A stretch of 64,000 bases of DNA from a virus, in the IMG/VR virus record IMGVR_UViG_3300045988_062648, positions 1 through 64,000 of that record, one strand, 5' to 3'. Below are positions 563-63,935 of this stretch, piece by piece. A program made the translations under genes and the position numbers. Under the pieces are notes generated by a model. That model saw nothing but the letters and a program-made list of their open reading frames with translations, had not been told where the DNA came from and searched no databases. Position 1 is the first letter of the stretch. Each line of letters begins with the position of its first letter.

Positions 563-606
563 CATCTCTTCTACGGGGGGGCGACTAATCAACTCTCGTA
601 GAAGAA
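563..606 (+). repeat. dispersed motif copy (forward, subtype B-like) paired with short inverted partner: TCTTCTACG-(21 nt)-CGTAGAAGA
   Basis: catctcttctacgggggggcgactaatcaactctcgtagaagaac in spacer between first two ORFs. Confidence 0.7.
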
Positions 607-648
607 CTACTAATAGTAAAAATAGTAAAGATATTAAACATAATAGAT

Positions 649-1176
649 ATGTCTAAGATATATAGATTTCCTAATAATGGATATGAAATAGAAGTAGTTA
701 GAAAAGATGATGTAATAGCTAGCATTGAAAATAATATTATAGATAAAGATGTAGCTTATGAAATTATCAATCAATTAGAGATTGATGCAGCTACTATGCT
801 TAGTGATGGTAAATGGGTTGGTATTCCTAAGTTTGGAAATATTCGAGCTAATCCTTTTGGATATAGAGCTATGACAGAAGAAGATAAAGAAAAAGTTAGG
901 AATGCTAAAGAAGTTTTATCACATGATAAATATGTAATGTTTAGAAAAGAAACTATTATTAAAAACAACGAACGTGTTAAGATTAATAGATTCTTTAATT
1001 ATACTCTTTCAATGAGTATTAATCGTAATAAACAATTATATAAAAGATTATGTGTTACACGAGGTGAGAAATGGACTAATATATATTTTTATGCTATGTT
1101 TAATGTTAAAGCTATTACTAATGATTGGTTAATATTTGAAAGCGATGACGAATCAAATGCAGCAACTGACGATTGA
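649..1176 (+). CDS. hypothetical protein
   Basis: 175-aa ORF, ATG start, follows a hairpin-containing intergenic spacer. Confidence 0.45.
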   Translation: MSKIYRFPNNGYEIEVVRKDDVIASIENNIIDKDVAYEIINQLEIDAATMLSDGKWVGIPKFGNIRANPFGYRAMTEEDKEKVRNAKEVLSHDKYVMFRKETIIKNNERVKINRFFNYTLSMSINRNKQLYKRLCVTRGEKWTNIYFYAMFNVKAITNDWLIFESDDESNAATDD

Positions 1177-1768
1177 TAGTCTTATTTTAATAGATGATAG
1201 CGGAATGCCTAAAGCTCCTACTATAAGACAGCTTATGGATATAGACGCTAGAGAACTTTATAATAGAGATAAATCTACAGATAAACACAAATATATACAA
1301 GAGTGTATAGTTATTTATTATCTTGGTGACCCTAAATCTCCTGCTAGACAAGCTGGACTTAGTGAACCTGAATCTCTTAAAATGGCTATTGAACAAGCAG
1401 GTCTTAGTAAAAATTATGTACCTGATAAAATTGTTATTCGTCTTATTAAAAAATATTATGAACAAAATATTACTGAAGCTGGTCGTGTAGTTGAAAATAT
1501 TATGCAAGGAATACATAATATTAATCTTAGTATAACAACTATTAATAATCTTCTTAATGAAAAACTTAATGGTGTTATGACACTTGACGATGTTCCTAAC
1601 ATTCTAGCAATGGTAGATAATGTTAATAAAAAGGCTTCTGATTTACCTGCTATAATGAAAAAACTTCAAGAAGCTAAAGAAAATCTTATGTATGAAAAAG
1701 AAACTCAAATGGCACGAGGTGGTAATACAGTTATTAGTAGTATGATTGCTGATGAAAATGATATATAA
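1145..1768 (+). CDS. hypothetical protein
   Basis: ORF track start 1136 is a TTG; first in-frame ATG at 1145; overlaps upstream ORF by about 30 nt. Confidence 0.4.
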   Translation: MTNQMQQLTIDSLILIDDSGMPKAPTIRQLMDIDARELYNRDKSTDKHKYIQECIVIYYLGDPKSPARQAGLSEPESLKMAIEQAGLSKNYVPDKIVIRLIKKYYEQNITEAGRVVENIMQGIHNINLSITTINNLLNEKLNGVMTLDDVPNILAMVDNVNKKASDLPAIMKKLQEAKENLMYEKETQMARGGNTVISSMIADENDI

Positions 1769-1770
1769 TT

Positions 1771-2778
1771 ATGGATAGTATTTATAATAGTAATTTTCTA
1801 TACTTTCAAGAAGATGGACATAAATATACTGATACACTAGGAAATAAATATACTAGTGTAACTACTCTTATACATGATAAGTATGTTCCTAAATTTGATA
1901 AGAAGTATTGGTTACATAAGAAAAGTGTTGAACTTGGAATAAGTGAAAAAACACTCGCTAAACAATGGCAAGATATAACTGATGAGGCTTGTACTAGAGG
2001 TACTAAAACTCATAATAGAATTGAGGATGGTATTAAAGATAATAGTATGTTTAGTAAAGCAGTCCAATATCTTTGTCAAGTTGAAAGTGGTAGATGTATT
2101 ACTGTTGCAGATATTCCTAATTTAATTCCTCAACCTCTTGATTTAGATAAATTTATTGAAGCTACTGAAAATCGTTATCCAGAGATTTATCGAGTATTTA
2201 AAGTTTATCTTGATAGAGGTTATACTATTTATTCCGAAATAGGTGCTTATATACCTAATTTACTTATTAGTGGTACTATTGATATTCTGTGTTATAAGCC
2301 TGATAATTTTGTAATACTTGATTGGAAAACTAATCGTAATGGTTTACAATTTACTAGTGGATATTATAAAAAAGATAAGACTACTATTCCTGCACAACTT
2401 ACTAAAGAATGGGTTGATAAAGATGAACGTATGTTACCTCCTCTTGGTCATCTTCCTAATTGTAATGGAATGCACTATACAATGCAACTTAGTAGTTACG
2501 CTAGAATGGTTGAATTAATACTTGGTATTCCTTGTATAGGTTTAGGTCTTTGTCATATTAGTAGTCCATTTGTACTTAACGCGTATGGTCAACCATATAG
2601 AGATGAAAATAATCAATATCCTATAGACCCTAATGGTAAAGAAAGTGTACATTGGTATAGAATTAATTATCTTGTACATGAAGTAGATTCTATATTTCAA
2701 GATAGATATAATCAATTAGAAGCAGAAAAAGTTAAAGTTAATAATCAATTAAATTTATTTGGAGAGTATGAAGACTAA
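1771..2778 (+). CDS. putative PD-(D/E)XK superfamily nuclease
   Basis: 335 aa; segment GTIDILCYKPDNFVILDWKTN fits hhhD...(D/E)xK core (D...LDWK) of RecB/Cas4-like nucleases; several Cys residues; inference from motif only. Confidence 0.35.
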   Translation: MDSIYNSNFLYFQEDGHKYTDTLGNKYTSVTTLIHDKYVPKFDKKYWLHKKSVELGISEKTLAKQWQDITDEACTRGTKTHNRIEDGIKDNSMFSKAVQYLCQVESGRCITVADIPNLIPQPLDLDKFIEATENRYPEIYRVFKVYLDRGYTIYSEIGAYIPNLLISGTIDILCYKPDNFVILDWKTNRNGLQFTSGYYKKDKTTIPAQLTKEWVDKDERMLPPLGHLPNCNGMHYTMQLSSYARMVELILGIPCIGLGLCHISSPFVLNAYGQPYRDENNQYPIDPNGKESVHWYRINYLVHEVDSIFQDRYNQLEAEKVKVNNQLNLFGEYED

Positions 2779-3382
2779 TCTAATTGCACTTTGTAATAAT
2801 TATGACTTTAAAAAGTTATTTGATAAAAAAGGTTATGTTTACTTTACTAAAGGAGCATATAATCTTAATATAATTGGAGTACGTCATGAAGGAAATGTAG
2901 TGACAAATAAATTTGATGACGCTCTTGTTGTTATTTGGATTGATGAACAAGGTCATCTTTGTCGTAAAGTATTTGAGTGTACAACTCAACCTGGAATTAG
3001 TTATATGGGAAAGACTATGGGAAATGTTAAAGGTACTGCCATTCTAGTTCCTGGTCAATATAGAGGAGCATATAAAATTGGACTTCATAAAGGAAAATAT
3101 AAAGCTCTTGTTCAAGCTAAACCTGTAAAAGTTTATAGAGATAATGATAAAGATAAAGAATATGATTATAATCCAACTACTATAGATGAAGGATATTTTG
3201 GTATCAATATACATAAAGCTGGTACAGCTTCTGTTATCGTTAATAATTGGAGTGCTGGTTGCACTGTCTTGGCTAAAGAAGAAGATTTTAAAGCACTTAT
3301 GCGACTTACAAATAAACAAATTGAATCAGGATTAGGTAGTACATTTACTTATACACTATTAAAGCAGGAAGACTTAAAATGA
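2768..3382 (+). CDS. putative L,D-transpeptidase (YkuD)-like cell-wall enzyme
   Basis: Track start 2759 is TTG; ATG at 2768. Motif GINIHKAGT...(16 aa)...WSAGCTV resembles YkuD catalytic H...SxGC(I/V) arrangement; stop overlaps next ATG (ATGA). Confidence 0.3.
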   Translation: MKTNLIALCNNYDFKKLFDKKGYVYFTKGAYNLNIIGVRHEGNVVTNKFDDALVVIWIDEQGHLCRKVFECTTQPGISYMGKTMGNVKGTAILVPGQYRGAYKIGLHKGKYKALVQAKPVKVYRDNDKDKEYDYNPTTIDEGYFGINIHKAGTASVIVNNWSAGCTVLAKEEDFKALMRLTNKQIESGLGSTFTYTLLKQEDLK

Positions 3383-3597
3383 ATATTTTTAGAATAGTTA
3401 AATGGCTTGGTAGATATAGAGTTGATCAACGCCATCATATTATGTGGATATTTAGATATTGGGATAGAGGAGCAGTAAGTCTTTGTCCTACTTATACTTT
3501 TGATACTCCACATGACGCTATGAAAGCTATTAGAGAAGTTGCTGGAGATAAAGCAACTATTTACGTTAAAGTAGAAAAGTTTATATATTATGATTGA
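3379..3597 (+). CDS. hypothetical small protein
   Basis: 72-aa ORF, ATGA overlap with upstream gene, tight packing. Confidence 0.35.
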   Translation: MNIFRIVKWLGRYRVDQRHHIMWIFRYWDRGAVSLCPTYTFDTPHDAMKAIREVAGDKATIYVKVEKFIYYD

Positions 3598-3892
3598 TAA
3601 TGATACTAAAATTGCAATAGTAGCTATGATAAGTTTATTGCTATGTTGTACACTATTATTTGTTTTATTTGGATGGTTTAGTCATACAGAAGAACTTAAA
3701 CGATTAGAAACAGAAGCTGCTATTGAGATTAATAAAAATAATAAAACTATTGAAGCTTTAGATAAAACTAAAGATAGTCTGATGTTACAAGTTGATAATA
3801 TTAATACTATTAAAGATGCAGAAATTATTAAAGTTAAAAGTCTTGATAATGACAGCACTCTTAATTTGTTCTATCAACTTATTAGGAAGTGA
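3590..3892 (+). CDS. membrane-anchored coiled-coil protein (i-spanin-like)
   Basis: 100 aa; N-terminal hydrophobic helix (IAIVAMISLLLCCTLLFVLFGWF) followed by charged helical region; architecture of type II spanin. Confidence 0.35.
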   Translation: MIDNDTKIAIVAMISLLLCCTLLFVLFGWFSHTEELKRLETEAAIEINKNNKTIEALDKTKDSLMLQVDNINTIKDAEIIKVKSLDNDSTLNLFYQLIRK

Positions 3893-4214
3893 AGTTAATG
3901 ATAGTGTGCAGCAATCTCTTCTACGGGGGGCGAGAGCCCAAGATAGTGCTAAAGTAAGTTATGACGATTTACGTATTGTAAATAGCAAACTTATTGAGCT
4001 TGAATATCTTAAAGTTGAGAATAATATACTTAAACAAGTTCATTCTACTGATAGTATTATTATTAAACTTAAAGATAATAATATAGAGCATTATAAAAAT
4101 ATTTACAATACTAAATCTGAACAATATAATAAAGTTAAATTTCAACGTGATATTGCTATAGGTAGTACAGGAGTTAGTATTGTTGCTTTAATATTAATGC
4201 TGTTATTAAAGTAA
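3816..4214 (+). CDS. small signal-peptide/Cys protein overlapping previous gene out of frame (o-spanin-like?)
   Basis: Track start 3792 is TTG; ATG at 3816 gives MQKLLKLKVLIMTALLICS... (basic n-region, hydrophobic core, Cys); overlaps 3590-3892 in another frame like Rz/Rz1; contains one copy of the dispersed motif (3915-3942). Confidence 0.3.
   Translation: MQKLLKLKVLIMTALLICSINLLGSEVNDSVQQSLLRGARAQDSAKVSYDDLRIVNSKLIELEYLKVENNILKQVHSTDSIIIKLKDNNIEHYKNIYNTKSEQYNKVKFQRDIAIGSTGVSIVALILMLLLK
3915..3942 (+). repeat. dispersed motif copy (forward, subtype B): tctcttctacggggggcgagagcccaag
   Basis: translated SLLRGARAQ within 3816-4214; GGGC-GAGA-GCCC hairpin with GNRA-like loop. Confidence 0.75.
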
Positions 4215-9355: not shown

Positions 9356-10681
9356 ATGGGAGAAAATGAACTTGATTTAGGTTTCCAGCCAACACTTAAT
9401 ATAGGTGGTGGGAACAAAGGAGAAGACAACACTAAGCCAAATGAAGAAATAACACATCTTAATGGTAAAGGTGACCCTACAAATCCTGAAGATGTAACAG
9501 GTAAAGATGGTACTAAACCTGGAGAACAACCTATAATAGAAGATTCTAATAAAGGAGAAGAAGAGAAGAAAGATGGTGTAGAGCCTGCAAACCCTTCTAC
9601 GGGGGGGCTAGAACCCAATTCTCAAATTGAATATGATGGCCAAGTATATACCGTAGATGAAAATGGTAATATAGTTGATGATAAAGGTCAAATATTTAAA
9701 GAAGCTAAAGATGTTGAAGTTTGGCTTAAAGAAAATGAAATAGTTGATGAAACAAAAGAGACAGATGCAAATAAGATTGATATTAAAGCAATACAAGATG
9801 CATTTGGTATAGAAGTAACAGATGAAGATGGTAAACAAGTTGAATTTACTAATGATGCACAAGGTCTTAAATCTTATGTAGATTCTGTTATTGATATAAA
9901 GTCTAAAGATATACAAGAAGCTACTATTAATAGTTTTCTTGAGAATAATCCTCTTGTTGCTGAATTTATTGATTATGTACAAGTTAATAATGGTAGTCCT
10001 GTAGGATTTGGAACAATTCCTGATAGAAGTAAAATTCAACTTAATAAGGATAATGAACAACAGCAAGAGTATATCATACGAATGGCTGCTAAAGAATTTG
10101 GTAATAATAGTCTTAATGATAATTACATTAAATATCTTAAAGACAGCGGAGGTTTGTATGATGAAGCTAAAGCTCAACTTGAAGCTCTTGTAAATAAAGA
10201 TAAACAAGTACGTGAGAATATAGCTAAACAAGCTGAAGCTCAACGTAAACAAGAAGAAGAAGATTTAGTTAATTATTGGAAAAATGTAAATTCTATTATT
10301 GAGAACAGAAACATTGCTGAATATAAACTTCCTGAGAGTTTTACAAAAGAAGTAGATGGTAAGAAAACAATAGTAACACCAAATGACTTCTTTAATTATC
10401 TGACAAGGCGTACAGTTGTTGATGAACAAGGTAATAGAATAACACCTTATCAAAGAGATTTATATGCAATAACCGAAGAGGAAGAACTTAATAAAGACTT
10501 ACTTGATGCTTGGTTAATGTTCACAGGTGGTACATATAAAGATTTAGTAGATATGGCAATTAAAGAAGATAATGTTCGTAAATTGCGTATTAAGTCTAAA
10601 GAACAACGTACTATTAAACCTATTAAGATTGTTAAGAAAGCAAATGGAGGTAAAGTTGATATTAATGATATTGTGTTATAA
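9356..10681 (+). CDS. acidic coiled-coil protein, putative scaffolding protein
   Basis: 441 aa, very acidic N-terminal half (GEDNTKPNEE..., EEEKKDG), helical KAQLEALVNKDKQVRENIAKQAEAQRKQEEE; located between portal and capsid genes; contains dispersed motif copy (9592-9618). Confidence 0.35.
   Translation: MGENELDLGFQPTLNIGGGNKGEDNTKPNEEITHLNGKGDPTNPEDVTGKDGTKPGEQPIIEDSNKGEEEKKDGVEPANPSTGGLEPNSQIEYDGQVYTVDENGNIVDDKGQIFKEAKDVEVWLKENEIVDETKETDANKIDIKAIQDAFGIEVTDEDGKQVEFTNDAQGLKSYVDSVIDIKSKDIQEATINSFLENNPLVAEFIDYVQVNNGSPVGFGTIPDRSKIQLNKDNEQQQEYIIRMAAKEFGNNSLNDNYIKYLKDSGGLYDEAKAQLEALVNKDKQVRENIAKQAEAQRKQEEEDLVNYWKNVNSIIENRNIAEYKLPESFTKEVDGKKTIVTPNDFFNYLTRRTVVDEQGNRITPYQRDLYAITEEEELNKDLLDAWLMFTGGTYKDLVDMAIKEDNVRKLRIKSKEQRTIKPIKIVKKANGGKVDINDIVL
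9592..9618 (+). repeat. dispersed motif copy (forward, variant): cccttctacgggggggctagaacccaa
   Basis: inside scaffold-like CDS (PSTGGLEPN). Confidence 0.65.
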
Positions 10682-15140: not shown

Positions 15141-15177
15141 CTACAACCTCTTCTACGGGGGTTGTAGATTTCAACTT
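15141..15177 (+). repeat. dispersed motif copy (forward, subtype A) embedded in an 8-bp-stem hairpin CTACAACC-tcttctacggg-GGTTGTAG
   Basis: ctacaacctcttctacgggggttgtagatttcaactt, 16 nt after stop of 14238-15125; terminator-like placement but no T-tract. Confidence 0.7.
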
Positions 15178-21424: not shown

Positions 21425-21454
21425 TCTCTTCTACGGGGGTTGTAAATCCCAACT
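21425..21454 (+). repeat. dispersed motif copy (forward, subtype A): tctcttctacgggggttgtaaatcccaact
   Basis: 10 nt after stop of 20742-21416; forms 15-bp inverted repeat with 21571-21596. Confidence 0.75.
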
Positions 21455-21485
21455 CATACTTCGCCAATTTGCCTATTTCTTTTGC

Positions 21486-21510
21486 GTCTGTCGGCTTTAA
21501 TCAGCTCTCG
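21486..21510 (-). repeat. short inverted copy of the conserved intergenic element (GCTGATTAAAGCCGACAGAC on minus strand)
   Basis: reverse complement matches GCTGATTAA...GCC(A/G)ACAGAG blocks of copies at 9071-9115, 25474-25516, 60568-60610. Confidence 0.4.
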
Positions 21511-21570
21511 TGAACAACATATCAGCTAAGTCATGTGAAACGGCTGACGGGCTTTAAAATGGGTCGGTCA

Positions 21571-21596
21571 CTACCACCCCCGTAGAAGAGATGATA
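21571..21596 (-). repeat. dispersed motif copy (reverse): ctaccacccccgtagaagagatgata
   Basis: reverse complement tctcttctacgggggtggtag; inverted partner of 21425-21454. Confidence 0.75.
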
Positions 21597-24600: not shown

Positions 24601-24661
24601 TGTAGTTAAAGATTGTAATCTTAAATTTTATGGAACAGATAATAATGCAATTAGTAGATAA
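21629..24661 (+). CDS. tail fibre protein with collagen-like Gly-X-Y repeats
   Basis: 1010 aa; GNTGPQGETGPQGEIGPEGPQGPPGNDGHDGEDGKDG and GPTGAKGATGPAGDPGSPGSQGPAGIPG triple-helix-type repeats; N-proximal module shared with 16512-17648. Confidence 0.55.
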   Translation: MDIKTDNIDNIKALMANILDGHNGENLYAYLAKFNSLNVGYVANAKSAREAVPEIFRKNGLYITYYINNKPTTEIFVGDKTVAGNETEWVKDEYWEFSDGIGHVDSNSITLNQLSKEVLDLICANNEINIVNYPDGEDLTEFDVCGGNSKRAVNALRFANKEYNPANFSGLGRVYLRKNIIDDKNILTQDMINENNIRYIIQYAYDLNDATINIPTNSVLEFQGGSFTNGTLNCDGTVIMTYDKDWLDVTLSGTYFFFGWADSIEQVEIVNNLTTDDATKALSAAQGVVIKNLLDDASKALIDAQTEINQKFTQIAEQIQNITADIDIPTDKPAKPGLGDLWFNTTNKTLNYWNGTEWIELNDSFDSQKVSADVTDVQTVEANEEAEATAKIVNSQIQFTFKIPKGATGNTGPQGETGPQGEIGPEGPQGPPGNDGHDGEDGKDGVSPTLPNYSIYRYRKSDSKPATPTGTSQNPSGWTDIPNDAGNWWQCVGEVNGATGAVTRWGEVLPLNGRDGIAQDGKYTEMRFAVNTSRVTYPTIDRSVRTPSGWTLAAPSVSQGQYLWMTTAIINPNDTLNTNWNIPVCISGPTGAKGATGPAGDPGSPGSQGPAGIPGVNMLVMYCVGTDTHIGGTTEVTNHWKSSDVYVITVPSYQGLGTGWYKTIPDYDPSTQYIWCTQGKREYTSSTKYTETWNKPFRLNGLNGLNGEDGSGKRGQIVYPAGIYDNNTAYVTDENKAPYVLDTTDGYYYVLNAIMTWRGSEQGNRTPSQDYAINSGKYWLKFEGFNAIYAKIGIIANGLVGSAVFNGDWMFSQAGQNSSGGPSTQYENFNPSNPYGGAFRPNVAINLKTGEVYFGCDKTRFGADGSGKLANGNIKWDADGNIVYNGLLASLNVLEDTNVGVTYADITLPHLSAPDVDSEYQMEYTYVFGPKTRAGLTRRVQLEERNDTLYYNGGTFSGSGVLNIEDKIPSAYGFIKFICRIDGQDNTWYMVVVKDCNLKFYGTDNNAISR

Positions 24662-25179: not shown

Positions 25180-25417
25180 GTTATATAAGATAGAACTATA
25201 TTTATTGAAGATAATACCAATGTTATTAGCATTGATAAACTTCATAAATATAGTTCTTTCTTTTAATGGTATAGATATACCTCTTTTAAGTTATATTGGT
25301 GGTATATCTTTTATACCTCTTATATTTCTTTATATAAGTAGTTATGTATTTAAATTTTGTGAATATCATAGAATGTTTCTACATTATATTGTTATATGTA
25401 ATGCTATAGATGTTTAA
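25157..25417 (+). CDS. small membrane protein
   Basis: 86 aa with two hydrophobic helices (IIPMLLALINFINIVL, ISFIPLIFLYISSYVF). Confidence 0.3.
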   Translation: MEVKPSVKLYKIELYLLKIIPMLLALINFINIVLSFNGIDIPLLSYIGGISFIPLIFLYISSYVFKFCEYHRMFLHYIVICNAIDV

Positions 25418-25647: not shown

Positions 25648-25675
25648 AGCAATACAACCCCCGTAGAGAAAGGTC
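25648..25675 (-). repeat. dispersed motif copy (reverse, slightly degenerate): tagcaatacaacccccgtagagaaaggt
   Basis: reverse complement cctttctctacgggggttgtattgcta; partner of 25781-25812. Confidence 0.7.
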
Positions 25676-25780: not shown

Positions 25781-25812
25781 AACTCTTCTACGGGGGTTGT
25801 AGTTTCCAACTT
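25781..25812 (+). repeat. dispersed motif copy (forward, subtype A): aactcttctacgggggttgtagtttccaactt
   Basis: perfect core plus extended TTGTAGnnTCCAACTT tail; 40 nt upstream of ATG 25854. Confidence 0.8.
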
Positions 25813-48700: not shown

Positions 48701-51700
48701 GGTAGTATTAAATTTGAAGCTAAAACTTATCGTCCTGTATTTAAACCTGGAGTTAAAGATACAGATGGTTATAGATTTTATGACCTTGGAAAGAATGGAA
48801 GTGTAATTGAAGCATCTAAAACTGGTAATATTTCACATTATAGACTTGGAGGTAATGTATTTAAAAGTAATAAATTTACTGTAAAAGAACTTGGAGATGA
48901 TAATGTGCTACGTAAAGTCAATTATATGGAAGATATATTTGACGATAGTATTAATAGCACAGGAGCTGATGGTCGCATCAACCTTCTCTACGGGGGGCGA
49001 GAGTCCAAACTTAATATTGTTCGTAGTGATACTGGCTTAGTCACAGATGTTCAACTTACAGAAGCACAACAAGAAAGAGCTATTAATAATATAGTTAATT
49101 TCCTTAATAGTTACTTTACGCAAGCACAAGAAGAAGTTGCTAATTTTAATAATTTTGTTAAAGGTGTTCCAACTACTATAGATGCTGTTGTAGATTTTGC
49201 TGCTAATCAACTCATTACTCATTATGCTTATGATGACATATTTGAAGGTGGAGTAAAGTTCTATGCTGATGCTCAAACTGTACTTAAACGTGCTAAAGAA
49301 GTACAAGGTAGTGGAGTATCTTATGGTATTGTTGATTTTAATGATTCAAATATAGCTGATTTATATGATATTCCAAATGCTTATCTTAATAATGGTAAGT
49401 ATTCAGATTATACTAAAGAACAATATATTGGTGAAGATGGTAAACGTCATACTAAAGAAGTTCCTAGAACTAGAACTATTCAAGAAGTATTTGCTGGTAC
49501 TGAACTTGCTGGTATAACACAACGTAATGGCTGGCGAGCAGTTACTATTGAAAATAGTAAAAACACAAACTTTGCAGCACTTAAAGAACTTACAGGCGTT
49601 CTTGTTAAAGCAGGAATGAGTGAAGAAAATGCTAAAAATCTTCTTTATGGTCCTGTTGTAACAGATAAAAATGGTAATCCTATTTATGATAAAAATGGAC
49701 TAGAAAAACATAAAGGTGGTTATCAAGATACTAAAGTTAATGATGCACAGTCTTATATAACATTTAAAGAATGGGTTAGAAGAATAGCTGCAAGAGGTCA
49801 ACTTAAACGTTATATGCCACTTATTGAGAAACTTCTTGATCCAAATGCTGTACTTACTGATAATGACCTTAATGAATTTGTACAAGTTCAAAAGAATTTC
49901 TATTATGATTTACATTATGATAGTAGTTTTAATCGTTTTGTTCCTCGTCAAATTAAAAATGCAGAGTTTGTATTAGTTCCTCGTTTTATTAAAGGAACTC
50001 AACTTGAACGAGTCGCTCAAATGATGGAAGAAGCTAATATAGACCAGCTTAATACAGTTGAAACTAGTAAGGCTTCTAATCGTCATGTACTTACTCTTTG
50101 GGATAATGATGGAGAAATAAGTGAAGAACGTTATCAAAACTTTGCTAAAGAAGCAAAAGGAGTGGCTGAGATTTATTATTATAAATATCTTTATACTCAA
50201 CAAGAAACTCCGCAACATGTTAATACTACTAATAAAGCAGGTATTCAAATAGTCAAAAAGATGATTGATAATCTTGCTCAAGATGACCCTAATAAACTTC
50301 AATTCTTTGCTAATTATGTAGCTAATATTGAAGAAAGTTGGAGAAATCTTCTTGATAAACTTGATGTACCTCGTGATGAAAATGGTAATATACTTACTAA
50401 TCAAGATGGTCAAATACTAGGTATTAATAAAAAAGTTCTTTATGAAAGATTTAAAGAAGAACTTTATCGTACTGGCATTAATAGTAATATACTCGATTTT
50501 GTAACTCTTGATGAAACTACAAATCAACCTATTGCTCCTGCTATTAGCAATCTAGTTCTTGATAAAATAGAAACTACTCATCAAGCTATTTATAATAGTA
50601 AGATTACAAGACAGAAACTTCCTGGTTTCCATGCAGCGCAAGTAACTAATATTGGTTGGAAGAGATTAGATAATGGTGAAAGTAAATATTGTCTGAAAAC
50701 TAATGCTAATGTAATTATAAGTAAAGAAGAGTTTAATAATCTTGATGAAACAGAGAAAAAGAAATACCGTAACACACAAGTACAATATGATGGTAGCTTA
50801 CGTTATCATCCTAATGGAGAAGGTTATATTGAAGTAAAACTTACTTATAGTGCTTTAGGTATCAATAAAAATGATCCTCACTATATAGGAATGACTAATG
50901 CTGAAATCATTAAAGAACTTGAAGAACAAGGACTTGATAAAATTATTGGTTATCGTATTCCTACAGAAGGTAAACAATCAGTAGCTGTAATGAAAGTTGT
51001 AGACTTTATAGATGATGGTCTTGGTTCAACTATTGTAGTTCCTAATGATTGGGTTAGTCAAACTGGTTCTGACTTTGATATTGACTCTGTATATGGTATA
51101 ACTTTCGATACTCATAGAGGAAAAGGCGGCAAACTTATTAAAGCTAAATTTGTTGATGGAGATAATTATACTATTTCTGATTGGATTAATTATATAAAGA
51201 ATTATGCTGATAGAAATGCCAAAGGTTATGTTCGTCCTAAAATAAAACAAATTATAGATGCTATTAATAGTTCTGAACAAGAAGAATTTGTTAGTCTTAG
51301 AGCACAAGAAGATGAAGCATTTAAAAAATTTATTTCTGCTATACCTGAACAAAGTAGAGGTAAAATGGTAAATAGATTTAAGAATGAGGCTAAACGAATA
51401 AGAACTGCACTTGATGGAGCTAGTAATAAAGAAATATGGTCAGCTCAACTTGAAAAATATATTCAAATAGCTAGTGATCTTAAAGCTAAACTTAAAAATG
51501 CAAATACTATTGCATCTATAGATGAATTTATTTCTTCTTGTGATGATATACTTAATTTCCTTAATAATCAAGATGGAAGATTTGAACGAAAGAAAGATGC
51601 AGCTCTTGCTGAAGAAGAACAAAAACGTATAGATAAGTACAATGAAATAGCTAAAGAAGCTGGGCTTCTTACATTTGATGAATATTTTGATGCACTTGAC

Positions 51701-54700
51701 GCAGCTAAAACTCCAGAAGATTTTGCTAAACTTAATACCCGTCATGCTAGAAATAATGCTATTGTTCAATCTATGCTTAATATACTTCAAGATGTAAAGA
51801 ATCTTGAAGAAAATCTTTCTCGTTCTAATTCAGATGATATAGAAGCTAGTATAGATAAATGTCTTGGGGATAATGCTAAAGCTGAACGAGAAAATCGTAG
51901 CCAGTATAATGTATTTGACGAAATGCGTTATCAAGAAGAAGCTATGAGTGGTGCTGTCCTTAAAGGTGCTAGCGTATTTATGGATAGTGTATGTTCTATA
52001 TGTAATGTTGTTAAACCTACACTTCGTGGTGGTGTTAAAGTTTCTTATGATACTAAATTTTATAATCAAGAAGAAATTACCAAACGTTACGGTTTAAATA
52101 AAAATGATATTAGTAAAGGACGTATTCGTGTAGTACATAATCAATATGGCTGGAGTTCAGATAATAGAAATGTTATTGGACGACTTATAACACCTTATAG
52201 TTCAGAAACTACAGCTTATATTCTTGATGCTATCAAGAAAGGTGCTATGCCAAATGTTAATCAATTTACTTTCCCAGTTCTTAAACATTTGGTTAATCTT
52301 GGTATAGATTATGATACTGCTATATCATTTATGGCAAATCCTGCTATAAGTACAATAATACGTAATAATAATAGATTTAATTCTATTTATAGTAATGAGT
52401 TTGGAAATGCTATTCATGAAAGTATTAACGAAATAGCTCGTCAACTTGGTATAAAAGTAGATGAAAAAACACCTGTAATAAGTGTTCTTGCTTCTGTTCA
52501 ATCTAAGTTTGGCGATGTTATTAATAAGATATTTAAAGTAGATAAAGAAGACGTTAAATTTAGTCTTGAAGAAGAAGCTGCTGCTACTCTTGCTTTAATG
52601 CCTGATAAACTTATAGCAAGACTTAAAGATAATGGTATCTTTGGCACTACAACCCCCGTAGAAGAGAAGTTGATATTTGACTTAGGTAATATACTTATCT
52701 TTAATAGACTTCGTAATCAAGCACAAGAAATAGGTGGAGTAGCAACTGCTCTTAATCCAGATAAGTTTGGTGCTAAAATGAGTCTTTTTGCTACTAATCA
52801 AATATTTGATAAAATACTTGGACAAATATATACTGATAGTAGTTATGTAGAAGAAAGAACAGACCCTATTCTTAGTATTAATGGAGAACATATACTTAAA
52901 AGTATTTATCCAGGTATTACAGGAGACCCAGAAAATAGTATAGAACCTGGAGTTCCAGCAATGCTTAGAGCAGATATTAGTAAAAGTACTTATCCATCTC
53001 TTGCAGCATTTCTTAAATATGCTACAGCTACTTCTTCTGTAATTGCTAAACAAGTTCTTCTTACTCAACATCCAGCTTTTATTCGTTTTTGTAACGGACT
53101 TGCAACTAAGTTTAGTGATGTTGTACAAGAAATGGACGAAAAGCAATATAATGATTTTCAAAAGTATGCTATTAGTTATTTCTACAATAATGTAGAAAGT
53201 ATTAGGCGTCCAATTGTACCAGTCAAAAACGAAGATGGTACTTATAGTTATAATATAGATAATAGCGATACTCCAGACAATGCTACTATTTCAATAGAAG
53301 ATGCAGAACGTGAACGAGTATTTGGTTATAATAGAGTTCCAGCTTTATCTATAGTTGAAAAAGTACAAGTTACTAGAAATGGTAAAACTATTAATAAGAC
53401 TGTTACTCGTCCAATAGAAATAGAAAATCTTAATCATCCAACTCAAGAAGAACTCAATGATTTTGCTCAATTTAGTCCTGCACAAAAAGTTAAGTTTATT
53501 AAAACTCATTTTGATGATGCAGGAGTGTTCGATTATATTGATGTTCAACTTTATAATCCTACAATAAGAGGTTGGAGAACTGGTATGCAAACTCTTGAAT
53601 ATCTTGAATCTAACGTTGGTGACAATGTTATATTTAATATGTTCTATGAAGCATATAATAATCGTAATCCTCTTGTTGCTATGGCTGCTAGAGATGTAAT
53701 TAAATATGCAATACAAGTTGAAGGTTATCGTATGCGTCAAACTGCTGCTGGTAAAGTTATTAGTAATAAACCTCTTAATACTGGTTATGAAGAAGGTGGA
53801 ATGAATTTCTTTGCAGAAGTTGCTGAAATGTTTTCTACTATTGGTACAACAGGTAGTGCTATATTTGAACAAACTAGTATGGATGAAATATATGAGAGAT
53901 ATTTTAGAAGTCATATAGATAATCCTCATATTAAATCATTTAGACTTACTAATTCAAGTATGATTAAGTTTAATATTCATACTCGTAGTTACGATATGCT
54001 TGTAATGGAGAAAAAGTATGATGAAACTTCTGATGATGATAAAATAGCTAAAGAGTTTAATAATAATTGTGCTAAAGCAGGAATTAAAACTTATCATCCA
54101 GCTTCTAATACATATACTACAAATAATTATCTTAGAGTATATCGTGATAAAAAAGTTGTATTATATAAAATAAAAGATCTTGGTGATAAAGTTATACTTT
54201 ATCCTCTTAATAAACTTCAACCTAATGAAACTACTGAATGGTCAGCTAATGATAATAATAATGAATATCCTAATAAAATAACTTATGAAGGTATTATTCA
54301 TGATTATCAAAAACAACTTTTTAATGATGCTGCATTACAATTTACTAGTGGTTGGATAAAAGAAAGTAATAATGCTAGAAAACAAAATGGTGAAAATCCT
54401 GTAGTTTATTATAAGCATCGTAGAGATTATAGCAATCAAGCAGCTACAGTTGATTTCAATCTTGATAAACTTGCTAATGAACAAGGAGGTGCTTTAGCAC
54501 AAGCTCGTGAACAAATTAGAAGTAATTTTGAACGACTTAATGCTAAACATCTTTATATGCGTAATGCTGCTCTTGGTAATTATATATTTGTTCCAGGTTT
54601 TGAAAATGCTAGTAAGCAAACTATTACAATGAGAAATGGAGCTAAAAGTACATTCCTTATTGCAAAAGTAGATACAGACAGAAGTAGAACAAATAAACGT

Positions 54701-57700
54701 TATTTAGGTAATAATAAAAAAGAAAATGCTAAAGTTATTCAAACTATAGACAATCCTTCTCTTCGCCAAGTATATGAAAATGCTAATAATATAGGTCTAA
54801 AACAAGTAAGTGACTTATTTGTAGTTAGTCCTTATATTACTGATAGTAGCGAAGATATAGCTATGGCTTCTAATATAGAAGAGAATTTCTATGGTATGAT
54901 TGATAATATAGCTCGTGTTGCTCATACTACAGGAGAACAAGAAGCTGTATATGTTTATGATAAATTATCTAAAGCTGGAGTTAATTCTACTAAACAAGCT
55001 ATTAGAAATAATATAGAACTTGCTGTTCGTGAAAGTGCTAGATACTATTCTCATAAAGCTCAAGAACTTAAAAATCAAGTTAATTTCTTTATAGAAGACC
55101 CAACTCTTCCGGGACAATATATTTCAATGAACTCTGATGAAGTTTATAATAGGCTTGTACAAGACCAAGATATGACTAAACGTTATCTTAGAGTTTCAAA
55201 TGAAATTACTGCACTTAGAAATATGCTTGCTCCATTTGAAGAACTTAATCTTGATTCAGAAGATGCTCAACTTCAAGGTTATATAGACGCTTTAAAGAAA
55301 GCATATAAAATTGTACGTGAACTTCCAGTTAATGAAATTAATACTAATTATGCTAGAAAAGTATTAGCTAAAACTTCTACTAATCCTGTTATTACTGCAA
55401 ACATAATTGATGTACTTGATAATTATCATCGTAATTATGGTGCTATGTGGAAGTTTCATGATATAGCTGAATCTGGTAATCCATTTGTTCAACTTCTTAT
55501 GAGAGATATAGCTTCTCTTACAGAGGCTAAACGAATGCAAACTCAAAGATTTAAACGGAATTATCAAGCACGTATTAAAGAAATACAAGATGAAGCTACT
55601 CGTAATGGCTATACTATTGACCTTAATAAAATGATAGATAAACATGGCTATTTTGTTAAGAGTTATACTCATCAATTTATAGAAGATTATGATAGACTTA
55701 GAGTAGCTAAAAATAATGCAGCGGCTGAATATGGTATTGGTTCTATTGAATGGCTTAAAGCTAGAAATGAATATGAAGATTTTAAAGCTAAATATATAAA
55801 TCAAGAAGTTAAACAAGAATATTACGAAAAGCGTAATGCTAATGAAAAATATATGCTTGATAACTATCCTGAAATATATGAAGAATATATGAAACTTCAT
55901 TATCAGAGAATAGAACTTATGTCTTATTCTAGTGACCACGGTACTACACAAGATATAATAGATAAAATTGCTAATGTTGAACGTCAAATGTTCAATCTTA
56001 CAAGACCTAATTATTATATTAATGCTGACGGTCAATTAGTAGAAAGACCTGTAAGAGATCCTGATATTCAATATAGTCCTGAAAATGAAAGAGTATTACG
56101 TCTTTATAGTAGAGATGCACAAACTACTCTTAATAATTATCTTGACGCTCAACGTAAACTTAATGAAGAATATTATGAATATGATTCTGCATTTGGTTTT
56201 GAAGAAAATCTTGAAAAGTATCTTAATATAATAAAAGATTTTGAGCAACGTGATGCTAATGGAGTTCCTACTGTTCCAATTACTGTACTTGAAAATAATC
56301 CTAAATATGTAGAAGCTCGTAATTGGGTTCGTGAAAATGCTCAATTCGTTATTACACCAACTGATGAAGCAATTAAATCAGAAAATAGTATAGCTTATAA
56401 ACTTACTAATGCTCTTAACAGATTATTGATAGGTCGTAATGGTAAAAGTTATGCTGTTAATGATATAATGAATAACGCTAATGACGGAAAAGGTATTCGA
56501 GATGAACGTGGCATTCCAGATGGAACAAAACTTACAGATAAGGAACGAGCTAATATTAAAAAGAATCAAGAAGATGCTTATCAAATAAATGAAAGTACAG
56601 CTGGTTCTGATAGAATTCTTATTAATAGTATTAGTAAGCGTGAGGGTGATACTTATAAAGGTGAGTTCTATCGCAGTATGACTAGTGACAAGAAGATAGA
56701 TAATGCTCGTTATCTTAAACTTGTTACTGAACTTAATAGAAAACTTGAAAAGTATTATTCTGATATAGACGGTATAATTCATTTTGAACAAATACCAGAT
56801 ACTGAAGAAGGAATAGAAGAACTTAGTGAAATTGCAATGCTTTATCAGCAAATTCGTGCTGTTAAAAAGCAATATAAATCTTCTACTTCTACAGAAGCTA
56901 CTGAGTTTATTAAAGAAAATGTTGTTTTTGTATATGATAAAAATATTTATCTTTCACAAGCCAATGCCGTTAATGATAGAAGTAGCGAATATACAGAAGC
57001 ATGGATGAGAGTTAATCTTGAACGTAATGAAAATGGAGATTTTATACAGCGTCAAGACGGTTCTGTTATTCCTAATAATATGATTTATTCTTATGCTAAA
57101 CCTAAAGGTAAAAAAGGAGAAACCAAATATGATAAATGGGTAGATAATCAGAAAGCAGAAGATTTAGCTATTGTAAATCAATATTATCGTAAAGTTAAGA
57201 CACGTTATTATTATCAAGCTATGCGAGAAGCTATGCGTCAAGAAGAAGAAAATCATGACGGTAGTTATCAGAAATGGTATCAAGATAATCATATTTATAA
57301 TCCTTATACACGTAAATATGAGCCTCTTGCTTGCTGGCTTATGAATGAATATCGTGACGAACTTTTTAAAGATAATGAATTTGAAGGTCGTTGGATGCCT
57401 AAGAGAAAACAACGTGAAAGAGTTGTTAGGGATGGTAATACTTCTATTATAGTAAATGGAGTAGAAAATACTATATATAATGAGTATAACGATAAACGTA
57501 ATGCTAATTACAATCCCAATCTTCCTCTTAGCGACAATTATATTCAAGGTTCAGGTTATGATAATAATGTAGCTCTTAATCCTTATGAAGTTCAAATGCG
57601 TGATTATATGCAATCTGTTCTTCAATCTCTTGCTCATGTAGATAGTGCTAAGAAATATTTTAGTAGAGGTGCTTTACCGAGAAGACTTAAACCTGAAAGA

Positions 57701-60046: not shown

Positions 60047-60073
60047 GTTGGGATATACAACCCCCGTAGAAGA
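60043..60073 (-). repeat. dispersed motif copy (reverse, extended): aagttgggatatacaacccccgtagaagagg
   Basis: starts inside stop codon of giant ORF; reverse complement cctcttctacgggggttgtatatcccaactt is the full subtype A consensus. Confidence 0.8.
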
Positions 60074-62431: not shown

Positions 62432-62437
62432 AGTACA

Positions 62438-62989
62438 TTATTTTTCTGTCGAACCAAAACCGCCTTCTCCACGGTCAGTAGCTCCAAGTGTATCTTGTGT
62501 TTCAACTTCATCCCAAACAATACGTTCACGGCGACGAACAAGTATTTGAGCGACTCTGTCTCCAACACTATATTCAGCACAAGAACTTGTTGGGTCATCT
62601 ATTTGACGATGAACAAGCATAAGTTCTCCACGATAACCTCCATCAAGGGTCCCTGGGGCATTCTGCATAACAGCAAGAGTTTTAGTATTACTACTACGAG
62701 GACGAATTTCCATTTCGTAATCTTTAGGAAGAGCAAAATGAAGTCCAGTATGATAAACTACTCGACCATCATCTTTATACTCTATTGAATGAACATAAAC
62801 ATCCATACAAGCATCACCAGGTTTGGCATAAGTAGGAAGTTTAACTGTTTCATCTTCACGCCAAACTTTAACGTAACAGGTATCAAGTTGACTAAGTACA
62901 TCTTTTACCATGTACTCCAAATCATCTCCACGTCCATTTTGTACAGCTAGTGTTATAGCACTAGTTAAAACATCTACAATTTTACTCAT
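62438..62989 (-). CDS. dut: dUTP diphosphatase (trimeric dUTPase)
   Basis: 183 aa with dUTPase motifs: GDACMDV, RPRSS, GTLDGGYRGEL, GDRVAQ and C-terminal RGEGGFGSTEK (motif V). Confidence 0.6.
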   Translation of the reverse strand: MSKIVDVLTSAITLAVQNGRGDDLEYMVKDVLSQLDTCYVKVWREDETVKLPTYAKPGDACMDVYVHSIEYKDDGRVVYHTGLHFALPKDYEMEIRPRSSNTKTLAVMQNAPGTLDGGYRGELMLVHRQIDDPTSSCAEYSVGDRVAQILVRRRERIVWDEVETQDTLGATDRGEGGFGSTEK

Positions 62990-63488
62990 TTCTTTTAAGT
63001 TTTAATTTACGTAAATTATTTAAATATTCAATACGATTTTTATTTTCTTGTTCTAACTTATATTTACGTTCTTCTTCTTTTCTTTCTTTATCTTTTTTAA
63101 TTATAGTATCTATATTACCTTTAAAAGATTGGTCAACAGGAACTTTATAAGTATCTTTATCTATTATTTGAATAAAGTTTTTTTCAACTAAACTTTTAAT
63201 AGCTTTACTTATAGTTCCTTTATCAAGAGTAAGAACTTCCTCAAAAGTATTACGTTCTATTTTAACAACATTAGTATTTTTCTTTAGACAATCAAGTATG
63301 TAAAAATATACAAGTTGTGTAGATCTATTACAATAAGCAATATCGTAAAGTCTATCTATTTTGACTCGTACACTTTCATTTAAATACTTACAAGGTCTAT
63401 TAATTACTTCACCTTTGTTATTATATTCAGGAACTGTCATTTCATCTATATTAAGAAGTTCTTGTTCATCAATAATAATTTCATTCAT
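62982..63488 (-). CDS. winged-helix DNA-binding regulator-like protein
   Basis: Track start 63602 is TTG; ATG at 63488 (MNEIIIDEQ...). Segment TLDKGTISKAIKSLVEKNFI resembles HTH recognition helix; Lys/Glu-rich helical C-terminus; iteron-like repeats upstream. Confidence 0.35.
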   Translation of the reverse strand: MNEIIIDEQELLNIDEMTVPEYNNKGEVINRPCKYLNESVRVKIDRLYDIAYCNRSTQLVYFYILDCLKKNTNVVKIERNTFEEVLTLDKGTISKAIKSLVEKNFIQIIDKDTYKVPVDQSFKGNIDTIIKKDKERKEEERKYKLEQENKNRIEYLNNLRKLKLKRNE

Positions 63489-63511
63489 AACTAGCTTTAG
63501 ACCGTTGACTA

Positions 63512-63533
63512 TACGGCAAAAATACGGCAAAAA
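63512..63533 (+). promoter_or_regulatory. tandem TACGGCAAAAA direct repeats (iteron/operator-like) upstream of minus-strand regulator gene
   Basis: atacggcaaaaatacggcaaaaag; on the gene strand these read TTTTTGCCGTA twice. Confidence 0.45.
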
Positions 63534-63568
63534 GTTGATAATTAGGCAATATTTATAAGATTTTGTTT

Positions 63569-63596
63569 CCTCTACGGCAACATTTTGTTGAAAAGT
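63569..63596 (+). promoter_or_regulatory. third TACGGCAA site: CCTCTACGGCAACATTTTGTTGAAAAG
   Basis: near-identical to 9127-9151; followed by GTTGAAAAGTTGCCAAAGTGTCAAC partial palindrome. Confidence 0.45.
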
Positions 63597-63615
63597 TGCC
63601 AAAGTGTCAACAAAA

Positions 63616-63648
63616 AAATCTCCTAACTAATTGATAGTCAGGAGATTA
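63616..63648 (+). promoter_or_regulatory. hairpin ATCTCCT-(15 nt)-AGGAGAT
   Basis: 7-bp inverted repeat in the leader region between regulator gene and downstream intergenic region. Confidence 0.3.
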
Positions 63649-63745
63649 CAACGGTCTAAGTAGTTCCTTATATAATATATATAAGTACAATACAAATATA
63701 CTTATCTTTATTTACATCACCATGCGCATTAACTCTTTTAACACT

Positions 63746-63775
63746 CTTGGGATATTAAACCCCCGTAGAAGAGTG
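63746..63775 (-). repeat. dispersed motif copy (reverse): cttgggatattaaacccccgtagaagagtg
   Basis: reverse complement ctcttctacgggggtttaatatcccaag; partner of 63901-63935. Confidence 0.7.
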
Positions 63776-63900
63776 TACATCGTAGCCTTACTTTGGTAAA
63801 AAGTTCAATCATCATTTGTTTCAAAAGCATATTCACTCTATCTAACTCTATTTTGTCTAGTACCAATATCACTACTATCTAGACTAAGACTACAACATCT

Positions 63901-63935
63901 CATTTCTTCTACGGGGGTTGTGTATCCCGACTTAC
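63901..63935 (+). repeat. dispersed motif copy (forward, subtype A): catttcttctacgggggttgtgtatcccgacttac
   Basis: intergenic, 130 nt downstream of its inverted partner. Confidence 0.75.

Follow-up and report, generated by a model that had tools for sequence, protein, structure and literature searches.

What does a short word signal when it recurs in both orientations and in every reading frame all along the genome of a virus? The question is raised by the IMG/VR virus record IMGVR_UViG_3300045988_062648, of which positions 1 to 64,000, one strand, form the stretch of DNA analyzed here (the window). An original prediction, made from the letters of this stretch, had described a dispersed motif in 18 copies and had taken it for a signal at the level of DNA. 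We find that the motif, with the 13-mer TCTTCTACGGGGG as its core, is a conserved, strand-specific family of cis-elements of the Intestiviridae crAss-like phages, which carry 17–32 copies per genome of ~90–97 kb. Comparison of the genomes further indicates that the element is kept as a set, appears to be needed at regular intervals on both strands, and is probably read by something that differs between lineages.

The window phage is a crAss-like member of the Intestiviridae. Its MCP and TerL proteins are 87% and 74% identical to those of the uncultured phage cr271_1 (Intestiviridae, Obtuvirinae), and 66% and 57% identical to those of the prototype crAssphage (Carjivirus communis). At the DNA level, GenBank phages match the window in scraps only.

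The motif in the window

Copies of the core were sought on both strands of the 64 kb window, allowing up to two mismatches, and dinucleotide shuffles served as controls. Twenty copies were found (13 exact, one with one mismatch and six with two), compared to 0.12 in the shuffles, where the largest count was 1. Ten lie on the plus strand and ten on the minus strand, at a density of roughly one per 5 kb, and the motif is the most repeated G+C-containing 11-mer of the window. All 18 copies reported previously were recovered, as was the partial partner given at 597, and a second partial inverted partner on the minus strand (42230–42242) was added to them. The copies themselves had been correctly placed; their core starts were 0–10 nt off (for example, 566 becomes 567, 34409 becomes 34416 and 60051 becomes 60061), because the extended motif and not the core had been marked.

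Half of the 20 copies are intergenic, although non-coding DNA makes up 5% of the window, and the remainder lie within open reading frames (ORFs), in three frames. Conservation around the copies spans ~30–35 nt. Downstream of the core there are two 3' variants, GGGGG-TTGTAGnnTCCCAACTT (variant a) and GGGGG-GCGAGAGyCCAA (variant b), both of which had been noticed before and were recovered by a repeat-family search of the window. Five of the copies within ORFs are sense and four are full antisense copies. Read in the frames of their ORFs, sense copies give LLRGAR (frame 2), PSTGGLE and SSTGGES (frame 0) and LLYGGRE (frame 1), while all four full antisense copies translate as TTTPVEE / PVED, in agreement with the translations given in the original prediction. 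A repeat at the protein level was rejected, since three frames and both strands are used.

Occurrence in other phages and in bacteria

The relative IMGVR_UViG_3300045988_073497, an IMG/VR genome that is collinear with the window and shares 66–89% nucleotide identity in the alignable parts, carries 22 copies of the same version of the motif. There are ~17 copies in cr271_1, of the version TCTTCTACGGGGG-AGCT and with a strand bias of 12:5. The prototype crAssphage (BK010471.1) has 32 copies of the version ttCCA-TCCTC(T/C)ACGGGG(G/A)-GTCTAC (0.42 expected for the first, looser scan), and the cultured phage ΦcrAss002 (MN917146.1) has 29 (0.8 expected) of the version yCCTTTA(C/T)GGGGGAA. In each of these genomes the copies have common 5' and 3' flanks, and the flanks differ between the lineages of the window, cr271_1, crAssphage and ΦcrAss002. 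Several copies are also found in many further IMG/VR contigs of ~90 kb and ~29% G+C. An artefact of assembly or adaptors was rejected, as the same motif stands at orthologous places in independent assemblies and isolates.

Among 185,579 bacterial and archaeal species genomes, an 18-mer of the window version gave one match, in an 8.9 kb contig labeled as a Bacilli metagenome-assembled genome (MAG; JAZSIL010000043.1). Because this contig has 28% G+C and carries two motif copies, it is probably a fragment of a crAss-like phage that was mis-binned into the MAG. A host-derived repeat or uptake sequence was rejected on the outcome of this search. The motif is present in related phages at conserved positions and no host repeat was found, so that the condition under which the original prediction would have taken it for passive host DNA does not hold, and the likeness to DNA uptake sequences proposed earlier falls away, since the motif is not abundant in hosts.

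The motif is not a feature of the whole order, and universality at that level was rejected: no comparable repeat was found in the marine crAss-like Cellulophaga phage phi14:2, and the Intestiviridae word was not found in crAss001 (Steigviridae; MH675552.1, first 100 kb). The latter genome has 27 exact copies of a different word, CTTCTGGAG (0.28 expected), 13 of them sense and 14 antisense, with 25 of the 27 in ORFs and a G-free 5' flank; this word may serve another crAss family as a comparable dispersed signal.

Some copies in the prototype crAssphage (6021+, 28076−, 28172+, 44952−, 58726−, 93666− and 95864+) are 'long forms', in which G+C-rich (AGCGN)n pentamers or a small hairpin that varies come after the core, with CTACTAAT or AAGCTAAT next. 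Two long forms sit in frame in ORFs (gp45 and gp50). A sequence related to that of the long forms, ...ACTACTAATAG, follows the 567 copy of the window.

The original prediction knew of no such repeat family in this kind of phage. Consistent with this, no description of the motif, or of crAss repeats or motifs, was found in the searchable full-text literature, including work on crAss genomics, the RNA polymerase (RNAP) of phi14:2 and the phage-plasmid lifestyle of crAssphage.

Conservation of motif positions

For at least 13 window sites, the relative carries a copy that matches in both position and orientation. The nucleotide similarity between the window and cr271_1 is almost nil, and ~11 window sites nevertheless have a copy in the corresponding gene or intergenic gap of that genome, again in the same orientation. 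For the window copy at 32818 and the cr271_1 copy at 39077, which share orientation and gene, orthology is tentative because the flanks do not align at the site. In protein alignments (25–40% identity), four to five window sites fall at matching residues in crAssphage proteins. The window copy 44495− and the copy in crAssphage gp45 (42677+) are aligned within ~1 residue, 48984+ and the copy in gp44 (39091−) lie within an approximate 16 residues of each other, and 34416− is probably orthologous, judging from the aligned sequences, to the copy in gp47 (50971+). At orthologous sites the core is invariant and the flanking DNA fully diverged, and the copies within ORFs sit in low-complexity linkers. 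These comparisons indicate that the positions of the motif have been kept since before the subfamily split.

Many sites are thus conserved in both position and orientation across related phages. Selection on the nucleotide sequence and not on the peptide, as originally proposed, is supported by the use of three frames and both orientations and by the invariant core amid diverged flanks at orthologous sites. The earlier view that a simple mRNA element does not fit also holds, because antisense copies are conserved inside ORFs.

One site documents how a copy is lost. At 56084–56103 (+) the window has a decayed copy, while the motif is kept in the relative (29628+) and in cr271_1 (62340+); in the window it was erased by point substitutions, and the alignment has no gap at the site. 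Since single copies can decay, it is the set and not each copy that appears to be maintained. Single copies thus seem to be dispensable, and the alignments give no sign of excision or recent mobility. Between the window and the relative there is no identity step at copies (segment 1–4767 of the window), and along the collinear genomes no segment between inverted copies is inverted. Recombination or inversion sites, one of the roles considered originally, are not borne out by the collinear genomes and the lack of breakpoints at copies in the segment 1–4767, and boundaries of recombination or mosaicism were rejected for the same reasons.

Spacing, orientation and subtypes

The evenness of spacing was measured by the coefficient of variation (CV) of the gaps between copies and compared with random placement. 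It was pronounced for the minus-strand copies of crAssphage (CV 0.31, p < 5e-5) and the plus-strand copies of cr271_1 (CV 0.33, p < 5e-5), and was also seen for the plus-strand copies of crAssphage (CV 0.50, p = 0.006) and the window sites with pairs collapsed (CV 0.38, p = 4.5e-4). Copies are present even within the giant ORFs, 21 kb without intergenic DNA; therefore coverage weighs more than gene context.

Within the ORFs of the prototype crAssphage there are ~11 sense and ~10 antisense copies. Antisense copies gather towards the point where the two gene modules converge (mean normalized distance 0.34, naive p = 0.002, the sites not being fully independent), and sense copies are uniform. The earlier idea of a polar signal at the DNA level finds partial support in the even spacing and in this gradient; nicking, which it included, becomes less likely because some inverted copies are only 13–24 nt apart.

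The subtypes of the motif are linked to orientation. All five sense copies in ORFs of the window are variant b, and the intergenic and antisense-in-ORF copies are mostly variant a. In ΦcrAss002, the sense form is mostly ...TTTACGGGGG and the antisense form mostly ...TATGGGGG, with a longer common 5' consensus, caacttgctgct.

Sequence pattern and folding

The general form of the element comprises ~18 nt without G, the last five of them pyrimidines, followed by YACG, GGGG(G/A) and the lineage-specific flanks. In four genomes, ACGGGG is preceded by an all-pyrimidine hexamer in 89 of 92 occurrences, with variation in the hexamer limited to C/T, and the frequency of G is at most 0.12 at positions −10 to −1, and 0.01 at −2 and −1. 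As a model, this pattern fits a mini-hairpin tolerant of G·U/G·T pairs, Y5-(YACG)-G5, that would form on the motif strand only; a protein reading the pyrimidine tract would explain the C/T pattern equally well. Folding of the consensus single-copy sequences gave z = −0.1 to −1.0. A stable hairpin of the UNCG/YNMG type is unsupported by the energies as the whole explanation, and the GGGGA variants of crAssphage would have a C·A mismatch.

Strong hairpins are formed by only some inverted pairs. A scan for intrinsic terminators over positions 1–40,000 of the window picked no motif copy. Searches against Rfam 15 found only a tRNA-Gln in the window and, around the pair at 21.4 kb with E up to 1, only a chance-level match, so that no known RNA family at gathering score identifies the element. 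Two further candidates were rejected: long-range RNA pairing of partner copies, as there is no complementarity beyond the core, and splicing or bypass between sense and antisense partners, as the ORFs stay open and the distances (1598, 2302 and 3669 nt) do not fall into one frame class.

Inverted pairs and repL genes

Single copies are not palindromic, and six window sites have an inverted partner, the second copy being 13–150 nt away. Close partners, 13–24 nt apart, occur in the window (567/593 and 42193/42230), in cr271_1 (68766/68799) and in crAssphage (22900/22927). The pair 21427/21577 forms a 163 bp foldback, and the segment 21417–21600 folds at −61.1 kcal/mol (z = −5.8). This segment is an imperfect palindrome of 163–184 nt between tail genes, with 44% G+C in a 30% genome and inverted motif copies at its ends, and is possibly a foldback element, or else a strong bidirectional hairpin.

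Another pair, 63760/63905, lies directly upstream of a minus-strand gene (62982–63602) for a homologue of RepL-family replication proteins (PF05732, 20.9 bits vs. a cut-off of 20.3; 27% identity to crAssphage gp43, E = 6e-6). The relative has two repL homologues and cr271_1 has none. Inverted pairs or copies are found 100–550 nt upstream of all four repL genes examined, namely those of the window, crAssphage gp43 and gp88, and the second of the relative. The spacers of the pairs upstream of repL in crAssphage have 23% G+C, and an origin has been predicted directly upstream of one repL (PMC10983915). At the divergent junction of the crAssphage genome, copies 95744− and 95864+ point into both modules.

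Individual copies and their gene context

The window is ~95% coding by an approximate ORF model. The plus-strand genes run from a PD-(D/E)XK-type exonuclease through terminase, portal, MCP, the tail genes and the tail ring protein to giant ORFs of 2353 and 4780 aa; next come the tRNA-Gln and a minus-strand block in which RepL, dUTPase and a crAss001_48-like gene are encoded.

The first copy (567–579, +, exact) is intergenic, 20 nt after the stop of ORF 14–547, and can form a hairpin with its partial inverted partner (593–605, −, two mismatches, from the mismatch scan); its orthologues are at 65874 in the relative and 3521 in cr271_1. The next (3917–3929, +, exact, variant b) is sense in ORF 3816–4214, just upstream of the terminase gene, where it reads LLRGAR, with orthologues at 69230 in the relative and 7006 in cr271_1. 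The small gene upstream of terminase has the motif in ΦcrAss002 (4210) and the prototype crAssphage (91286) as well, these two being matched by gene position only. Upstream of MCP, the copy at 9593–9605 (+, one mismatch) is sense at the end of a low-complexity linker in ORF 9356–10681 and reads PSTGGLE, and has orthologues in the relative (76141), cr271_1 (14928), the prototype crAssphage (85732) and ΦcrAss002 (10169). At 15149–15161 (+, exact, variant a) an intergenic copy follows a stop codon by 24 nt and precedes the next ATG by 36 nt. A hairpin can be closed around it by the flanks CTACAACC / GGTTGTAG; in cr271_1 the stem around the orthologue (20442) is a different one, GTTCAAG / CTTGAAC.

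The arms of the 163 bp palindrome hold the copies at 21427–21439 (+, exact, variant a, intergenic, left arm) and 21577–21589 (−, exact, right arm), upstream of the tail-fibre gene (21629–24661). A divergent intergenic pair with a 113 nt spacer is made up of 25658–25670 (−, two mismatches, TTCTC...) and 25784–25796 (+, exact, variant a); the latter is 70 nt upstream of the tail ring protein gene (25854–26564) and has an orthologue at 31981 in cr271_1. Both copies in ORF 32210–35449 have orthologues in the relative: the sense copy at 32818–32830 (+, exact, b-like variant), which reads LLRGAT, at 8235, and the antisense copy at 34416–34428 (−, two mismatches, variant a), which reads TTTPVER, at 8756−.

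The 2353 aa ORF contains a divergent pair of an antisense copy at 42080–42092 (−, exact; 16305− in the relative) and a sense copy at 42193–42205 (+, exact, variant b), the latter in a low-complexity linker and reading SSTGGES, with orthologues at 16412 in the relative and 47766 in cr271_1. The partial inverted partner of this sense copy (42230–42242, −, two mismatches) follows after a 24 nt spacer. Further on in the same ORF is an antisense copy at 44495–44507 (−, exact, variant a; TTTPVEE), with orthologues at 50248− in cr271_1 and in crAssphage gp45, as given above. The 4780 aa ORF of the RNAP block has a sense copy at 48984–48996 (+, two mismatches, TTCTC, variant b; LLYGGRE; 23088 in the relative and 55543 in cr271_1) and an antisense copy at 52653–52665 (−, exact, variant a; TTTPVEE; 26187− in the relative and 59062− in cr271_1). 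The extension of the copy at 60061–60073 (−, exact, variant a) abuts the stop of this ORF, where the two gene modules converge. Its orthologues are 33478− in the relative and 66209− in cr271_1, and the cr271_1 copy is one arm of a hairpin with a T-rich run after it. The inverted pair upstream of repL consists of 63760–63772 (−, exact; 37380− in the relative), which is sense for the minus-strand module and ~160 nt upstream of the repL homologue, and, across a 132 nt spacer, 63905–63917 (+, exact, variant a; 37519+ in the relative) as the second arm.

An AT-rich box, TAGTAAAAATAGTAAAGATA, recurs 30–60 nt beyond several intergenic copies and close ahead of start codons (600–648 and 25812–25853 in the window; ~65900, 81840 and 37330 in the relative), and the 63760− copy is followed by a conserved GTATATTTGTAT similar to the Bacteroidetes −7 element TAnnTTTG. 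Both are possible promoters.

A few other features were noted. ORF 649–1176 (+), directly 3' of the 567/593 hairpin, has a weak HU-like match (PF00216) with E = 0.009, under the Pfam cut-off. Positions 25291–25397 of the window (107 nt) are 81% identical to 27582–27688 of cr271_1 (hypothetical protein), an isolated conserved island in diverged surroundings. Between ORFs 32210–35449 and 35531–36718 there is a perfect palindromic hairpin of 14–16 bp with T-runs on both sides (35465–35500), a candidate for a classical bidirectional terminator separate from the motif. The DNA polymerase of cr271_1 is annotated as two coding sequences (83336–84385 and 84777–86033) with ~390 nt between them, as might result from an intron or some other interruption.

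Comparison with known systems

The element was compared with several kinds of dispersed or strand-specific signals. One kind is the single-strand initiation (ssi) or primosome sites, such as ssiA/ssiB of RSF1010, the n' site of phiX174, the G4 origin and Frpo of the F plasmid. Like the motif, these are strand-specific and can stand in any relation to genes; they act on unwound DNA and occur on opposite strands near the origin, as the motif may also do. However, there are one or two ssi sites per replicon, they are stable hairpins of 40–100 nt, and they are read by RepB'-type primases, PriA or host RNAP, whereas the motif is present in 17–32 short copies with a weak hairpin. The promoters of T7, T3 and SP6 share with it an asymmetric consensus of 13–30 nt, ~15–30 copies, differences between related phages such as co-evolution with a phage enzyme would bring about, and a G-run after a stretch of A, T and C only. 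The T7-type promoters all run in the direction of the genes, however, and N4 has only three hairpin promoters, while ~40% of motif copies are antisense, many of them conserved in ORFs. The multi-copy asymmetric consensus of such promoters is therefore present, but not the alignment of all copies with genes, given the four full antisense copies of the window and ~10 of crAssphage.

The nick consensus of T5 and phiKMV-like phages resembles the motif in being at most ~20 nt long, at fixed dispersed positions and with no obvious gene-regulatory logic; the nicks are few and on one strand, but the motif lies on both (10 plus and 10 minus in the window). Chi and KOPS are similar in density (~1 per 3–5 kb), in occupying genic sites in any frame and perhaps in having informative orientations, but they are 5–8-mers, enriched in and read by the host, while the motif is at least 13 nt long, specific to phage lineages and, by the 18-mer search, not bacterial. 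The original comparison with classical Chi or KOPS is weakened accordingly, since those short words belong to the host genome as well and are recognized by host enzymes. REP/BIME sequences, Rickettsia palindromic elements and PeSLs are likewise short, dispersed, in both orientations and often in inverted pairs, with the Rickettsia elements occurring in frame in ORFs and PeSLs between phage genes. Yet all these are palindromic elements of 30–150 nt with insertion polymorphism and irregular spacing, and a single copy of the motif is non-palindromic, at a fixed position and evenly spaced. The ops element, which recruits RfaH, is also a strand-specific word of 12–13 nt with a tiny one-strand hairpin in very long operons, but it is sense-only, in operon leaders, whereas the motif has conserved antisense copies and no NusG-like factor was identified. 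Resemblances to CRISPR repeats (mimicry), boxA/nut, the IHF consensus and the pMV158-type nick site (CTACG) were also considered, and were too short for a test.

The element thus fails at least one tested defining feature of T7-type promoters, terminators, Chi/KOPS and DNA uptake sequences, REP/MITE repeats, nick consensus sequences, ssi sites and Rfam families. By analogy, its nearest likeness would be to the dispersed sites that a phage-specific enzyme recognizes. The comparison suggests that its even spacing, its conservation inside ORFs across subfamilies and its orientation-linked subtypes are without a described counterpart in phages, as far as we know.

Possible roles of the element

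The reading that we rank first, tentatively and with the balance still against it, is a strand-specific signal coupled to replication, for priming or single-strand initiation. On this model, the replication machinery of the phage would read the motif on unwound or single-stranded DNA, and each copy would mark a start of complementary-strand synthesis, needed every few kb on each strand. The inverted pairs around AT-rich spacers beside repL would be origin-proximal start sites. The invariant CGGGGG might be the part that is recognized, with synthesis beginning at the CTA immediately 5' to it, and a short primer might be copied from the G-free template tract, a detail that we infer from the sequence pattern. 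The two 3' variants of the window (TTGTAG..CCCAAC and GCGAGAG) would be alternative flanks, with GCGAGAG used where the element is sense in a translated ORF. Replication is favored because it covers the indifference to orientation within ORFs, the evenness on each strand, the copies in the giant ORFs, the conserved antisense copies with their gradient, and the association with repL. Flanks that are lineage-specific and common to all copies would be expected from co-evolution with a phage-encoded reader, and the antisense gradient would be expected if forks crossing the junction still need same-strand signals.

Candidate readers were considered in turn. RepL was rejected, as cr271_1 has ~17 copies and no repL, and the 'IHF' virion proteins were rejected because these crAss genes code for tail ring proteins (PF25702). 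A RepB'-like primase is unsupported, the 'primase' of cr271_1 having no sequence match in Pfam or the PDB. The homologues of that protein (gp_64718) are unusually conserved, at 72–98% identity over 1345 database matches, and lack a Pfam domain; they have an invariant E295 and D322xD324, consistent with a TOPRIM fold, and the AF2 model has low confidence (pLDDT 55).

Several observations weigh against a role in replication. These phages have a primase of the DnaG/TOPRIM type, judging by the DnaG-family annotation of the ΦcrAss002 orthologue and weak TOPRIM fold matches from a low-confidence model. Primases of this type normally need only a trinucleotide, and the sequence-specific ssi primases (RepB') are another family. 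Okazaki priming is normally far denser than one site per 5–8 kb per strand, and the core hairpin is no more stable than shuffled controls and near zero as DNA. The priming role is a best guess from the sequence, and the link to origins is not universal, because cr271_1 has the motif without repL. Furthermore, the unpaired intergenic copies are mostly sense and 11–33 nt past stop codons, the full TTGTAG variant is never sense inside a window ORF, and a hand count from the copy listing of ΦcrAss002 gave 11 TACG to 4 TATG among sense copies and 3 to 11 among antisense copies. Since subtypes correlate with orientation to transcription, the context of transcription or of mRNA and translation matters, and because the genes of each module share one orientation, the polarities of replication and transcription are inseparable from sequence.

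These last points bring in the close rival, to which we give slightly less credence: a transcription-coupled polar signal, read in its own orientation by RNAP or in nascent RNA. It could be a promoter for the two-barrel RNAP with its start at the G-run, like those of the T7 type, or a terminator or attenuator that needs no hairpin. It could also be a site of RNA processing or, like ops, a signal on the non-template strand for reloading an elongation factor along long operons, and antisense copies would act on read-through transcripts from the convergent module. The asymmetric consensus of 13–30 nt, in ~20–30 copies with lineage-specific flanks, is typical of phage RNAP promoters of the T7 group. 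Transcription would also account for sense intergenic copies that are followed by AT-rich, promoter-like boxes, for the crAssphage copies pointing into both modules at the divergent junction, for the uniformity of sense copies along operons and the clustering of antisense copies at the convergent junction, and for the tracking of subtypes with orientation in ΦcrAss002 and the window; a G·U-tolerant RNA helix with a YACG loop would be expected to vary in just this way, by C/T only opposite the G-run. But ~40% of the copies are antisense and conserved as such in ORFs across subfamilies, where a promoter would drive antisense RNA. A terminator at sense copies in ORFs would truncate essential mRNAs, an antiterminator leaves the antisense copies unexplained, and single copies come without a U-tract or a stable hairpin. 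In phi14:2, moreover, the early transcripts of the virion RNAP share no motif and the middle and late genes use host sigma70-like promoters (bioRxiv 10.1101/2020.03.07.982082), and this phage itself lacks the element.

The remaining explanations appear unlikely, in descending order. An architectural DNA-binding protein of the phage, whether the product of the HU-like gene by the 567 copy or another, might use the copies as binding sites to organize, condense or loop DNA for replication, packaging or ejection; this would suit the even spacing, the indifference to gene orientation, the tolerance of any position that coding permits and the lineage-specific flanks, and inverted pairs could bind dimers. 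We consider it improbable, since the crAss 'IHF' genes belong to the tail ring, the HU-like match of ORF 649–1176 is sub-threshold, HU binds without sequence specificity, and the G-free strand-specific tract, the orientation-linked subtypes and the antisense gradient are left unexplained. A little less probable again is a selfish miniature repeat (a MITE/REP-like or PeSL-like cassette) without phage function and kept uniform by gene conversion. It would explain flanks common to all copies of a lineage, new inverted partners beside older copies in the window lineage, G+C-rich long forms with (AGCGN)n in frame in crAssphage ORFs, the ~24 nt shared by antisense copies of ΦcrAss002 and the foldback at 21427–21589. 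However, copies stand at orthologous positions across subfamilies with an invariant core in saturated flanks, their spacing is even and not random or clustered, neither insertion polymorphism nor target duplication was seen, and the sole loss was by point decay. Repeats of 13–30 nt are also too short for efficient gene conversion, and no transposase or RAYT-like gene was noticed in the part of the ORFs that was scanned. A rather remote possibility, in our view, is that the copies are sites of a phage nicking endonuclease, which would leave virion DNA with localized breaks in single strands like that of T5 or phiKMV-like phages. The consensus of ~13–20 nt at a few dozen fixed positions recalls that of the phiKMV-like nicks, the phages encode DNA ligase and HNH and PD-(D/E)XK nucleases, and cr271_1 has its 12:5 strand bias; on the other hand, copies occur on both strands, and partners 13–24 nt apart would turn two nicks into a double-strand break. 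Least likely of all, and very doubtful, is a Chi-like or other signal for a host enzyme, such as protection of concatemers from a RecBCD/AddAB-type nuclease or a KOPS-like guide. The density of ~1 per 3–5 kb, the use of all frames in ORFs, the presence of both orientations with some polarity, and the absence from the marine Cellulophaga phage phi14:2 would agree with it, but known Chi and KOPS words are 5–8-mers enriched in the host chromosome, while the 18-mer gave one chance-level match, in a mis-binned phage contig; the flanks differ between phages of related hosts, and the phages carry a Gam-like nuclease inhibitor.

A broader reading, held just as tentatively, is that the copies are a genome-wide 'punctuation': evenly spaced, strand-specific signals that would be read by a phage machine, for instance a QDE-1-like RNA polymerase or a divergent primase that starts strands on single-stranded DNA. 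To our knowledge, no phage counterpart of such a system has been described.

Implications

[quoted passage not shown] Constraint at the nucleotide level inside genes limits the encoded protein and would bias dN/dS estimates, and the motif can serve as a lineage marker and is a possible target for diagnostics or engineering. If genome-wide punctuation is indeed what the element provides, it would be a mode of organizing replication or transcription that is new to phages, found in the most abundant human gut virus too, and written even into the linkers of giant ORFs.

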